A stretch of 40,323 bases of DNA from a virus (taxonomy: Duplodnaviria > Heunggongvirae > Uroviricota > Caudoviricetes), in the IMG/VR virus record IMGVR_UViG_2695420876_000014; one strand, given 5' to 3'. Shown piece after piece: positions 7,473 through 10,991 of the stretch (positions are counted from its first letter, which is position 1; each line of letters opens with the position of its first letter). The position numbers and the translations under genes were made by a program. Below the pieces are notes generated by a model. It made no database searches and was not told the origin of the DNA. It was given only the letters and a program-made list of their open reading frames with translations.

Positions 7473-7856
7473 TCATCTCGCCGTCAGTTGTTTGGATTTC
7501 CGGTAGCCTGCCGCGTAAATGGCTACGTTTGGAAGACATACACCAGTTTCTGGTTGCTTATGTCCAAACTCATTCGCGTACACAATGGCCGCTCGCTCCA
7601 GATTGCGTCTGTATTCTTTCTGTTGCCAGATCACGTCCTGTGCCATGAACTTAATTGGCTTAGCGTCTTCTATACGCTCAGGCGTTTCGTGAGTACCTTT
7701 AGCCTGAATCTGCGCTCTGCTTAGAGTAGGGCGGTGTAATACTTCTGAACTTATTGCTTCTTCGCGGGCCAGTACGCCGTTAGCTAATGCCTTTACCTTT
7801 AAACGCTCACGACGACGAGAACGTGAATTGCCTTTGAACTGAGTTCTGCGTGTCAT
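7473..7856 (-). CDS. N-like transcription antiterminator with a P22-type arginine-rich motif
   Basis: 127 aa; N-terminus MTRRTQFKGNSRSRRRERLKVKALANG resembles the RNA-binding ARM of P22/phage-21 N proteins; strong SD (aggagg) before the ATG; matching P22-type boxB hairpins found at both nut positions. Confidence 0.75.
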   Translation of the reverse strand: MTRRTQFKGNSRSRRRERLKVKALANGVLAREEAISSEVLHRPTLSRAQIQAKGTHETPERIEDAKPIKFMAQDVIWQQKEYRRNLERAAIVYANEFGHKQPETGVCLPNVAIYAAGYRKSKQLTAR

Positions 7857-8021
7857 ATAGACCTCCTGATGAACTTTGGTGGTGTGGTAGGTGGGAGACC
7901 CATTTCGACCTGTTTCGGCCTACTTCAATTCGGCAATAGTCCCGCAGGCCTCGCCGCTTTACGTGCGACATATTCCCGTCCATGAACCCTTCACCACACC
8001 CCAAAGTTCACTTTGGTTATT

Positions 8022-8036
8022 GCGCTTTGTCAGCGC
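8022..8036 (-). promoter_or_regulatory. nutL boxB hairpin (minus-strand GCGCTGACAAAGCGC)
   Basis: Reverse complement of 8022-8036 is GCGCTGACAAAGCGC, a 5-bp stem with GACAA pentaloop as in P22 boxB; upstream of N in the leftward transcript. No convincing boxA was found next to it. Confidence 0.6.
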
Positions 8037-8107
8037 CGTAGATTCATATTCGAATCGTTGTATATTCACCGCCCTGGTGAGTAGTGCGTCCTGCTGATGG
8101 GTGAACT

Positions 8108-8160
8108 TTATCGGAATGATAAATTAATGGCAATAGCAAAATGATAAATTCTCTTGGTTT
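8108..8160. promoter_or_regulatory. OL/pL region with repeated ATGATAAAT operator-like half-sites
   Basis: ggaatgataaattaatgg and aaaatgataaattctc in an AT-rich gap upstream of nutL and N; the same motif recurs three times between cI and cro. Confidence 0.45.
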
Positions 8161-8330
8161 TCAAATATCGTATTGATTCTTATGGTGTTTTATTTTGTTG
8201 TAGGAATTCGACAGGATAAATAAAGAGATTTGAGGGAGATCTGGATTGCGTTGTTTAGCAAGTTGTATCTATTTATTTTTCAACAAATACAATTGGTTAT
8301 GTGTTTTTAGGTGTGGGGATCGTGAGGCAA

Positions 8331-8354
8331 AGAAAACCCGGCGCTGAGGCCGGG
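8331..8354 (-). terminator. rho-independent terminator ending the cI operon
   Basis: Minus-strand reading cccggcctcagcgccggg followed by ttttcttt, just downstream of the stop at 8363. Confidence 0.7.
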
Positions 8355-8362
8355 TTAATGCG

Positions 8363-8983
8363 TTAATGCTGGGGAGTGATTTTTTTGTTGTCTGTTGGCT
8401 GGGTATTTTGTGGCGGCGCTTGCAAAGTGGAAGGCTGTTGCAAAGGTACGTGGTCTGACTTTAAAGCTGATACCAGCCCGGGAATCGCAACTATTACAGC
8501 GATAATGACACTAAAAATGGCTAATCGTATAGAAATACCCGACTGAACACCACTAATTGCGGTATTAACCCCTGTTATTTGTCCTTGAATTCCTTCGAAT
8601 CTCCCATTAATTGCTTTTATATCGCCAGCAGCGCTATCCATCTTTCCATCGATCTTGGACGATAGAGAGCTTATGGCTGCATTAAGTGATGCAAATTGGA
8701 CATTAACGCTTTCACGAGATAGAGCCATGTCAGCCCTAATGGAAGAAGCAATAGACTCCATCTCTGCTTTATTAGCAGCTAAGCGAGCATCAAGTTCCTC
8801 TCTGCTGATCGTTCCCACTTCTTCCTCCGTTTGTGGCGGTTTTATGTAATTATTTTGCACCTTGGTGGGAGAATTATCAAATTCAGCCTCAAAATCGGAA
8901 CCGCCAACAACCTTCAACCTCCGGCTTTCAGATATGTTGGTGTCTTGCTTTCCATGATTATTTAAATTACTGTCGTCACTCAT
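8363..8983 (-). CDS. tail-anchored coiled-coil membrane protein of unknown function (third gene of the cI operon)
   Basis: 206 aa: polar N-terminus, long Ser/Ala-rich heptad-like middle, one C-terminal TM helix (IRLAIFSVIIAVIVAIPGLVSAL) and a Pro/Gln-rich tail; ATG overlaps the stop of the upstream gene (ATGA). Confidence 0.6.
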   Translation of the reverse strand: MSDDSNLNNHGKQDTNISESRRLKVVGGSDFEAEFDNSPTKVQNNYIKPPQTEEEVGTISREELDARLAANKAEMESIASSIRADMALSRESVNVQFASLNAAISSLSSKIDGKMDSAAGDIKAINGRFEGIQGQITGVNTAISGVQSGISIRLAIFSVIIAVIVAIPGLVSALKSDHVPLQQPSTLQAPPQNTQPTDNKKITPQH

Positions 8984-9468
8984 AATAGCTCTACGGTGAA
9001 AAATGATTCATTTTTATGAAGTTCATTTTTAGGGTCTTCATTATCTTGCAATATCCCTATAACACTATACAGCCCTTTAGCTGGGACCCTAATTTCTTTC
9101 AATGTTACTATTACCTGTCCGCCAACCCCTGTTTCAAAATGGCTATCTTTCGTATCGATGAAAAGTGAAACTGATTCCGAAGAGCCGTCAGGGAATTGAA
9201 TTTCCTCACCTTTTTTTATAATTAGGTGCGCGGGGATTACCATAATACCCAAATTATATCTTGAATTTGGTTTCAACCCGATCATACCAACCCTGAAATC
9301 AATTGATAGCCGCGCAGGAAATTCATTGCATGTAAAATTAAGCGTCGGTTGGTTGGGTTCTTCGCTGCTATCAAATGGGGTTATAAAAGATATTCTTTCT
9401 AAATTAAGTGCCATAAATTCTCCTGCATCGCTGTATGCTCTACGAGCATCTCTGCGATCATCCATCAT
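8980..9468 (-). CDS. hypothetical protein (second gene of the cI operon)
   Basis: 162-aa ORF; a better-supported start is the internal MALNLERISF at 9414 (aggag 8 nt upstream), giving 144 aa; no recognisable domain. Confidence 0.55.
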   Translation of the reverse strand: MMDDRRDARRAYSDAGEFMALNLERISFITPFDSSEEPNQPTLNFTCNEFPARLSIDFRVGMIGLKPNSRYNLGIMVIPAHLIIKKGEEIQFPDGSSESVSLFIDTKDSHFETGVGGQVIVTLKEIRVPAKGLYSVIGILQDNEDPKNELHKNESFFTVELL

Positions 9469-9484
9469 CCAAACGTCTCTTCAC

Positions 9485-9826
9485 TCATCCGAAGAAGCAG
9501 CAATCCGGGTCAGCACGCACAAGCTCAAGCGCATCAGTCAGCGAAAGTTCAGTACTGTACTGATGCCATTTCATATCCTTCCGCATCCAATAGATTTTCC
9601 ATCTATCCAGAGAACGTATGTACTTGATTCTTGCTGATGGCAGGATGTTTGTTTCACCTGGGTTGCCCTGCCACACGGGGCGCTGTTCGCCGATATCTAT
9701 CGTTTGGTCATTGATGCTATAAACAATATCCAGTTCATTGCGGATATGTTCAGGCGGCCTTATGCTTTCAATGAATTGGTGAACTTCTTTTTTGACCGCT
9801 TGATATTCAAGGTCAGTGAACGCCAT
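9485..9826 (-). CDS. hypothetical protein (first gene downstream of cI)
   Basis: 113-aa ORF MAFTDLEYQAVKKEVHQFIESIRPPEH... with a strong SD (gaggagg) 4 nt before the ATG; 60 nt downstream of the cI stop on the same strand. Confidence 0.6.
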   Translation of the reverse strand: MAFTDLEYQAVKKEVHQFIESIRPPEHIRNELDIVYSINDQTIDIGEQRPVWQGNPGETNILPSARIKYIRSLDRWKIYWMRKDMKWHQYSTELSLTDALELVRADPDCCFFG

Positions 9827-9886: not shown

Positions 9887-10591
9887 TCACGAACTTTTCA
9901 GCCACTCCCTTGCCTCGATGTCATCCAGATGGCGAGATTGCTTCAGAATACCAGCTACATACTCCACCTTTGCTACTTGATGATAAGGCAACGTTATAGG
10001 CCTGTGATCCTGGTTAATGCTTGTAAATTGGTATTCTCCATCTCTGTCATAGCCAAGAACCTTAATCATGTTGTGTCCTTCAACGGTTCTGACAAACACC
10101 TCATCACCCGGGAATACTTTGGTGTTAGGCTCAATGAGTACATATTCTCCTGATTTTATTCTGGGCCACATGCTGTCTCCTTTCACACGAAGACCAAAGG
10201 CATCTGGATCATCGCTATAAATTTTGAGCCACCCATCGCGCTCTTCGGTCATCTCGATGGCACCATCAACACCAAGAATTGCCTCACCAACCACGCGCAC
10301 TAACCCTTTTCTTACCTGACCGACAAAAGTTAAAGAATCTGAGCATGATGCAATTGGTGTTACATCATGTACCAAATCAAGCCACCCATTAGGTAACCCA
10401 AGCGCGGCTTCAAATTTTCTTGCTAGTTTATCCCCTATGTTTCGAGTGCTTTTTTCACCGGAGACTTGCGTGAGTTGAGAAGGGCTAACCCCAAGCTTAT
10501 CGGCAAAGCTTGCATTAGTGTTACCCGCGATTTTTTTATGCTCATCTAGCAAAAACGCCAGATTCGATTTGCGAATATCTTTGTTTTCCAT
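9887..10591 (-). CDS. cI: CI-like prophage repressor (N-terminal HTH, C-terminal S24 LexA-type autopeptidase)
   Basis: 234 aa; HTH-like FADKLGVSPSQLTQV and a C-terminal domain with VKGDSMWPRIKSGEYVLIEPN (catalytic Ser, with Lys downstream) typical of RecA-cleavable repressors; divergent from the cro-like gene. Confidence 0.9.
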   Translation of the reverse strand: MENKDIRKSNLAFLLDEHKKIAGNTNASFADKLGVSPSQLTQVSGEKSTRNIGDKLARKFEAALGLPNGWLDLVHDVTPIASCSDSLTFVGQVRKGLVRVVGEAILGVDGAIEMTEERDGWLKIYSDDPDAFGLRVKGDSMWPRIKSGEYVLIEPNTKVFPGDEVFVRTVEGHNMIKVLGYDRDGEYQFTSINQDHRPITLPYHQVAKVEYVAGILKQSRHLDDIEAREWLKSS

Positions 10592-10945: not shown

Positions 10946-10991
10946 CGCTCTTTTCACAATGGACATTCGTCCTACGTCGCTGACAAAGCGA
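10946..10991 (+). promoter_or_regulatory. nutR: boxA (cgctctttt) and P22-type boxB (tcgctgacaaagcga)
   Basis: boxA-like CGCTCTTTT at 10946-10954; hairpin with GACAA loop at 10977-10991; located between cro and cII on the rightward transcript. Confidence 0.6.

Follow-up and report, generated by a model that had tools for sequence, protein, structure and literature searches.

A conserved, covarying long-range helix in the N leader of a lambdoid phage is a probable counterpart of the RNase III-processed stem-loop of lambda

The window, a stretch of 40,323 nucleotides from a virus of the Caudoviricetes, encodes an N antiterminator on its minus strand. The gene is preceded by a pL-like promoter, a nutL boxB hairpin and the two arms of a long-range helix (Table 1). 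The bases AUCAGCAGGACGC (8098-8086) match exactly those with which the lambda pL transcript begins, and a GenBank note on the homologous bases of HK106 reads '5' nt of sequence similar to lambda early leftward transcript'; A8098 was therefore taken as the transcript start. With the start placed by homology, the N leader is ~242 nt long, ends at the ATG at 7856 (minus strand), and contains a stem-loop of about 143 nt. Positions 7840-8140 are 100% identical to the corresponding region of Stx1a-converting phages and 98-99% identical to that of HK97, HK106, 933W-like and Stx2 phages. An earlier note on this DNA, made from the sequence alone, had called the N protein P22-like. The description suits the boxB, which is common to P22-type leaders, but not the N protein, which belongs to the H-19B/933W/HK97 type.

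Table 1. Features of the N leader and their coordinates in the window.
Feature	Position	Strand	Basis
pL-like promoter, TTGCCA-17-TAAAGT	8105-8133	-	Consensus scan
Inferred transcript start (+1), A	8098	-	Homology with the lambda pL start and HK106 GenBank annotation
nutL boxB hairpin, GCGCUGACAAAGCGC	8022-8036	-	Counterpart of the annotated nutL boxB in HK106
H0, local alternative hairpin	8001-8016	-	CCAAAG (8016-8011) with CUUUGG (8006-8001), loop UGAA
5' arm of the long-range helix, GUGAACUUUGGGGUGUGGUG	7992-8011	-	Pairing, fold, covariation
Type A cap, multi-branched interior, 102 nt	7890-7991	-	RNAalifold, 23 type A variants
Cap helix	7989-7988/7891-7890		RNAalifold
Cap helix	7987-7984/7975-7972		RNAalifold
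Cap helix	7969-7965/7957-7953		RNAalifold
Cap helix	7950-7945/7912-7907		RNAalifold
Cap helix	7944-7942/7933-7931		RNAalifold
Cap helix	7902-7899/7895-7892		RNAalifold
3' arm of the long-range helix, UACCACACC-A-CCAAAGUUCAU, bulged A at 7880	7869-7889	-	Pairing, fold
Shine-Dalgarno (SD) sequence of N, AGGAGG	7862-7867	-	1 nt from the helix foot
N antiterminator gene, 127 aa, H-19B/933W/HK97 type	7473-7856	-	ORF list; Pfam N_peptide PF25694, E = 4.8e-15; annotated N in matching phages

Two further observations concern the surroundings of the leader. A terminator-like hairpin with a U-run lies at 8335-8356 (minus strand), just upstream of pL, and comes after three minus-strand ORFs (8363-9826) located between the repressor gene (9887-10591) and pL. 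This arrangement is reminiscent of the lambda rex region and its terminator. On the plus strand, a probable nutR boxB, UCGCUGACAAAGCGA, is found at 10977-10991; its loop is the same as that of the nutL boxB, and the closing G-C pair is replaced by U-A with both sides altered. A boxA-like sequence, CGCUCUUUUCA, precedes it at about 10947-10957, and a GU-rich boxC-like motif is not present after it.

The pairing of the two arms was examined on the minus-strand RNA. The outer part of the helix has 11 pairs, G8011•U7869 followed by U8010-A7870 through G8001-C7879, and the inner part has 8 pairs, G8000-C7881 through U7993-A7888, with A7880 bulged between the two parts. The earlier note had described an inverted repeat with a single bulge at this place, between the nutL boxB (8036-8022) and the N ATG (7856), and its location and bulge are both correct. 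The ~105 nt that it gave between the arms come to 104 nt by count. Its length of 17 bp is an underestimate, because the helix has 19 bp and extends 1-2 bp further at each end. The result is a duplex of about two helical turns with one bulge. A gapless repeat finder returns it as two pieces of 10 and 13 nt because of the bulge. The 5' arm includes the GU-rich motif known from lambda work as boxC of nutL.

The earlier note had proposed RNA folding of the minus-strand transcript as a check. For the 261-nt leader, the long-range helix is present in both the minimum free energy (MFE) fold and the centroid fold. The 149-nt stem-loop has a folding energy of -60.4 kcal/mol compared to -42.5 ± 3.8 kcal/mol for dinucleotide shuffles (z = -4.7), and none of the 200 shuffles was as good. 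The window was also scanned for helices of at least 18 perfect Watson-Crick pairs with one 1-nt bulge and a loop of no more than 200 nt. The N-leader helix is the sole match in the 40,323 bases, and 30 shuffles of the window gave none. The boxB hairpin lies 10 nt off one side of the helix foot and the N SD lies 1 nt off the other, and in the MFE fold the SD bases G7866-G7865 are paired with C8016-C8015. An upstream sequence, AAAGUUCAC (8109-8101), was rejected as a partner for the 5' arm because it lies in the promoter, ahead of the inferred start at 8098.

An N-leader RNase III element is of a kind known from lambda since the 1970s-1990s. The lambda site was reportedly described by Steege in 1987, Kameyama in 1991 and Wilson in 1997 and 2002 as a stem-loop between NUTL and the N ribosome site, and the fold of the lambda leader suggests that the mapped lambda cleavage sites lie in the very helix considered here. 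The stem-loop of the lambda N 5'UTR is cleaved by RNase III (PMC4419217), and the N mRNA of lambda is under positive regulation by the enzyme (PMC9032294). When lambda N and Nus factors are bound at NutL, they repress the translation of N over a spacer described as 'highly structured' (PMC5725501). The earlier note had suggested that the window might hold an analogous element, and the comparison with lambda bears this out and goes beyond it, since the arms are homologous, occupy the same position and have the same bulge. The lambda arms GGCUUUGGGGUGUGUG...CACACACCACCAAAGCU align base for base with the window arms GAACUUUGGGGUGUGGUG...ACCACACCACCAAAGUUC, with the bulged A at the same place (CUUUGGGGUGUGUG opposite CACACACC-A-CCAAAG in lambda, and CUUUGGGGUGUGGUG opposite CACCACACC-A-CCAAAG in the window). 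The transcript 5' end AUCAGCAGGACGCAC is common to both phages. The leaders of lambda, H-19B, a Salmonella phage and a P22-type phage adopt the same basal helix with the same bulge position when folded, and leaders set side by side, lambda included, all have CUUUGGGRUG...CAYC-N-CCAAAG at the same place.

The window and lambda elements are alike in their position on the pL transcript, the transcript 5' end, the near-identical arms, the place of the bulged A and a similar distance to the SD. By analogy, RNase III-dependent control of N translation is presumably another point in common. They differ in three respects. The two stem interiors have unrelated sequences, the window having a type A cap and lambda another cap; the window nutL boxB and N protein are of another specificity type; and the window helix foot reaches 4-5 bp nearer the SD. 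As judged from sequence, the window inverted repeat is a homologue of the RNase III-processed N-leader stem-loop of lambda, and we infer that it is likewise cleaved. An RNase III feature is absent from the lambda GenBank records. These records (NC_001416 and J02459, 35037-35438; our loci L005 and L542) annotate N from an upstream ATG at 35438, giving a protein of 133 aa. That start would put the whole stem-loop in coding sequence, and the comparison of leaders fits the start further downstream, at 35360 (MDAQTRRRERRAEKQ).

The distribution of the element was determined with three core-motif pattern scans of IMG/VR that allowed gaps of 25-115 nt. They returned about 365 matches comprising 162 distinct elements, a sample biased toward the core. 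The great majority of the matches are in N leaders, and the minority are chance matches or lie in unclear contexts. Because of the bias, leaders were also gathered by the transcript 5' end alone (CAUCAGCAGGACGC). The helix was scored in a fixed geometry of 11 bp, a 0- or 1-nt bulge and 9 bp, with a threshold of at least 18 out of 20. A helix at this threshold is present in 189 of the 207 unique leaders of the 5'-end collection that have a boxA-like motif compared to 3 of 40 shuffled controls. The strict core occurs in only 4 of the 39 leaders unique to the 5'-end scan and the helix in 37; the two exceptions arise from a shortened version of the helix that falls outside the loop-length limit. 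A curated set of 64 distinct arm pairs was assembled after a few spurious best-scoring matches elsewhere were dropped. In this set, 76-101 nt separate the anchor from the start of the helix, and the end of the helix lies 12-18 nt ahead of the start codon. The bulge site is near the helix center, and 60 of the 64 arm pairs have a purine as the bulged nucleotide.

Covariation was evaluated in an alignment of 60 distinct arm pairs (A1). The best-pairing arms were picked for each leader, which inflates the percentage paired, and with this choice favoring structure 93.3% of the cells are paired compared to 75.2% in shuffles. Both sides change at 14 of the 20 pairs in the alignment, and the covariation score is 0.507 compared to 0.166, a value reached by none of 500 shuffles. 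Slid controls are 35-44% paired. The positions left unconstrained by the search pattern, five outside and five inside the core, are 71-94% paired, and each of them shows 5-6 pair types. Out of 1000 permutations, 0-2 were as high at these flanking positions. Pairing falls abruptly to background from inner position 6. The extension of pairing for five positions on either side of the 10-bp core, followed by a stop, indicates a constraint that keeps the helix at about 20 bp. The core itself has a variant that keeps pairing, CUUUGAGUAGCGCG/CGCGUUACUCAAAG, in some phages with a lambda-type N. The earlier note had named a lack of conservation or covariation of the arms in related phages as evidence that would count against its proposal; these data show instead that leaders of many N types have kept the helix and that its arms covary. 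RNase III usually does not need conserved sequence, so the strong sequence conservation of the 10-bp core may reflect another constraint besides RNase III.

A helix held in this way could have a role in which RNase III takes no part. It would then be an RNA-looping scaffold that only brings the nutL-bound complex of N, Nus factors and RNAP beside the N ribosome site for autorepression. The positions of boxB and the SD at the helix foot in the fold are what such a scaffold calls for, and autorepression of lambda N via NutL across a structured spacer has been described (PMC5725501). However, a length of ~20 bp with an abrupt stop at inner position 6 suits a two-turn RNase III substrate better than a tether, and the arms are near-identical to those of lambda, where the N 5'UTR stem-loop is cleaved (PMC4419217). 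We consider a scaffold without RNase III improbable.

The interior of the stem in the window is the type A cap, whose consensus structure was derived from 23 variants with RNAalifold (Table 1). The helix 7950-7945/7912-7907 (GGCCUG/CAGGUC) is the only cap helix with compensatory changes; the remaining ones are invariant across the 23 variants, which provides no evidence either way. A local hairpin, GGCC-GAAACA-GGUC, predicted by RNAfold from the single sequence was rejected, because the alignment favors the pairing of GGCCUG with CAGGUC. The type A cassette is 91-100% identical in phi80, VT2phi_272 and phages with a lambda N, and its flanks there are unrelated. The arm-bounded segment 7874-8006 (query positions 135-267) is the only part matched in phi80, VT2phi_272, ArgO145 and Louie; in these phages nutL and N are either unrelated or of the lambda type. 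H-19B and Salmonella phages exhibit the reverse pattern, in which the flanks match and the middle does not. In a limited sample (loci L001-L541) the caps fall into about 30 unrelated sequence classes of 38-198 nt that are reassorted among 19 types of N defined by the N terminus, and the mosaic boundaries coincide with the helix arms. The window N type (98-100% identical) is combined with the type A cap at 61 loci, with the H-19B cap type at 9 and with a 198-nt type at 8, and lambda-type N is combined with 15 cap types. The cap therefore appears to be an exchangeable module, and its job may be only to nucleate and stabilize the long-range helix. The type A element (7866-8016) is present in 499 of 5,426 complete E. 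coli genomes, and a single genome can have as many as 4 copies. In the 12 E. coli records listed, it is not covered by any annotated feature. The window element has no Rfam match even at E <= 10, and Rfam gave no match in 17 loci representing 17 cap types, lambda's included.

The coincidence of the arms with the mosaic boundaries raises the question of selection at the DNA level, with the arms acting as a recombination linker, that is, as short homologies for module swaps whose complementarity is incidental. The coincidence is exact, the 133-bp segment 7874-8006 is 91-97% identical in phi80, VT2phi_272 and Louie between unrelated flanks, and the reassortment of about 30 caps is what module swapping would yield. 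A linker of this kind does not explain the compensatory changes on both arms, with 93% of cells paired, or the core variants in which pairing is kept (CUUUGAGUAGCGCG/CGCGUUACUCAAAG). Nor does it account for a helix of constant length in which the place of the bulge and the spacing to the start codon are constant too. Selection for recombination in place of RNA structure is very unlikely, and recombination at the arms probably follows from the conserved RNA helix and is not an alternative to it.

Some caps are shaped like tRNA. ARAGORN called tRNAs at four N-leader alleles, L149 (5485-5558), L151 (369-450), L142 (2758-2828) and L517 (691-760), and two of them pass the Rfam tRNA gathering score (L149 with 45.5 bits and L151 with 34.8 bits). 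These tRNA-shaped RNAs are located atop the conserved basal helix, in the stretch that separates nutL from the N ribosome site, and the L149 leader folds into a cloverleaf on this helix. The discriminator and CCA-end places are taken in L142 and L517 by the bulged A and the CCA that follows it. The tRNA register relative to the core varies by allele, with tRNA position 1 at core index 8, 6 or 5. Two side observations belong with these caps. The N leaders of L473 and L487 have a 174-nt stem-loop with a T-arm-like hairpin, UGUGG-UUCRAUU-CCACA, four nucleotides ahead of the 3' arm, and neither ARAGORN nor Rfam calls a tRNA in this stem-loop. L079 (minus orientation, 7767-7879) has a 113-nt element with the same arms that is followed by a 170-aa ORF and not by an N-like gene; ARAGORN made no call at it, and its 3' part, GCGGGUUCAACUCCCGCC, resembles the 3'-terminal T arm of tmRNA.

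These alleles suggest that the element itself could be tRNA-like or of the RNase P type, with GGUGUGG/CCACACC followed by A-CCA mimicking an acceptor stem, discriminator and CCA end. The four ARAGORN calls fall at exactly this position, two are above the Rfam threshold, and the discriminator and CCA places of L142 and L517 agree with it. The window itself has no tRNA or tmRNA call by ARAGORN (7700-8200) and no Rfam match at E <= 10, and its cap is a multi-branch extension and not a cloverleaf. The difference in register among alleles means that the acceptor/ACCA resemblance is not general. The tRNA reading of the window element was rejected on these grounds and has only a slight chance of being correct; the tRNA-shaped RNAs are most readily viewed as a further cap type.

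The least probable proposal is that the segment is a small protein gene (ORF 7807-8004, 65 aa, or the hypothetical proteins that GenBank places over the homologous segment in Louie and PhiR12_1) or a pL terminator, given that stop codons interrupt the only open frame in phi80 and VT2phi_272, that this frame is absent from unrelated caps, and that the 3' arm is followed by UCAGGAGG and no U-run, with a terminator scan negative at the element. The GenBank genes, Louie_CDS0041 over the stem-loop itself (L003, 1503-1637) and the PhiR12_1 protein over the N-leader region (L008, 983-1117), are probably mis-calls because the annotated frame is not conserved. Two known kinds of element were also rejected. 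A transposon-like cassette, such as a miniature transposable element, does not fit since the flanks are mutually complementary, not direct repeats, there is no target-site duplication, and nearly all matches with a readable context are at the same N-leader place; L052, L057 and L113 look like chance matches, and L079 is a pattern match outside the N-leader place that, unlike these three, was not ascribed to chance. The prophage sRNAs AgvB/AsxR and the Pas sRNAs map elsewhere than the N leader, at places downstream of PR' and Q.

The 5' arm of the long-range helix has a second potential partner. The hairpin H0 starts immediately after boxB, folds alone at -5.3 kcal/mol, and cannot coexist with the outer half of that helix. 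Its upstream partner is fully complementary in 15 of 19 distinct combinations compared to 15.5% of shuffled upstream sequences. H0 also covaries with the 5' arm, as in CCAAAC/GUUUGG, CCGAAG/CUUCGG, UCAAAG/CUUUGA and CCAGAA/UUUUGG. In several H0 variants the long-range partner is mismatched at the altered position, and the upstream copy sometimes covaries better. The conservation of H0 implies that the outer half of the helix is unpaired at least part of the time. H0 ends at the helix center, the inferred cleavage site, and this suggests two plausible roles in our model: protection of the 3' end of the released nutL RNA, or help for that RNA in leaving the N mRNA.

We think it likely, by analogy with lambda, that the helix is an RNase III processing site that places nutL beside the N ribosome site and controls N translation. 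From homology and helix geometry, host RNase III would bind the two-turn duplex and cut both strands near its center, with the 5'-arm cut expected near G8001/G8000 and the 3'-arm cut near C7879-A7877. Cleavage would part the nutL-bearing leader from the N mRNA, which would keep a leader of ~21 nt. Before cleavage, the structure would limit N translation as in lambda, with the ribosome site hindered and the N/Nus complex at nutL held adjacent to it. Cleavage would lift this repression, and N synthesis would then track host RNase III activity. The literature searches found cleavage and expression data for lambda alone, and none for leaders of the H-19B/933W type.

A more speculative proposal, which we regard as rather unlikely, gives the helix a role beyond translational control as a fixed excision scaffold for hypervariable structured RNAs. 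If so, the caps (40-200 nt, some of them tRNA-shaped) would be cut by RNase III from the first phage transcript. Once freed, the caps could work in trans as 'morons' at the level of RNA, for instance by supplementing tRNAs or by serving as decoys against functions of the host or of rival phages. H0 would shield the 3' end of the released nutL RNA from exonucleases or aid its detachment from the N mRNA.

The long-range helix also has features in common with other known systems. Like the rrn leader (boxB-boxA-boxC), the N leader has Nus-loading signals upstream of a long-range helix that encloses a structured RNA, and the 5' strand of the helix comes after the box elements; the resemblance considered is one of layout. 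The enclosed RNA is a tRNA in some N-leader alleles, as in rrn spacers. A model for rRNA holds that a tether between boxA and RNAP aids formation of the long-range helix (PMC4807359). The two systems differ in that the enclosed RNA is 40-200 nt in N leaders compared to 1.5 kb for 16S rRNA, and in that the downstream product of the N leader is an mRNA under translational control. The lambda cIII, lambda sib/int and T7 R1.1-type sites are similarly irregular duplexes of ~two turns with a central bulge or internal loop, and processing at these RNase III sites alters translation or stability (PMC5371410, PMC9032294). They are local hairpins, whereas the N leader has a long-range helix with an exchangeable cap and a competing upstream hairpin. 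Full-text searches, made with limited access to the literature, found no earlier account of the helix in phages other than lambda or of tRNA-like N leaders, although such accounts may be known elsewhere. The invariant purine-bulge geometry, the breadth of cap exchange, the tRNA-shaped caps and the covarying H0 are likewise without an earlier description that we found, and with this limited access they too may be known.

N is the first product that commits lambdoid phages, Shiga-toxin phages included, to delayed-early expression, and the amount of N therefore feeds into the choice between lysis and lysogeny and, in Stx phages, into induction. The arrangement touches on two old questions about lambda, the conservation of the GU-rich 'boxC' beside nutL and the repression by nutL-bound N of a ribosome site about 100-200 nt off. 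The invariant helix geometry with its purine bulge, the competing upstream hairpin and the freely exchanged caps provide testable handles. If the lambda mechanism holds in phages of the Stx1a type, their N output would be tied to host RNase III activity.
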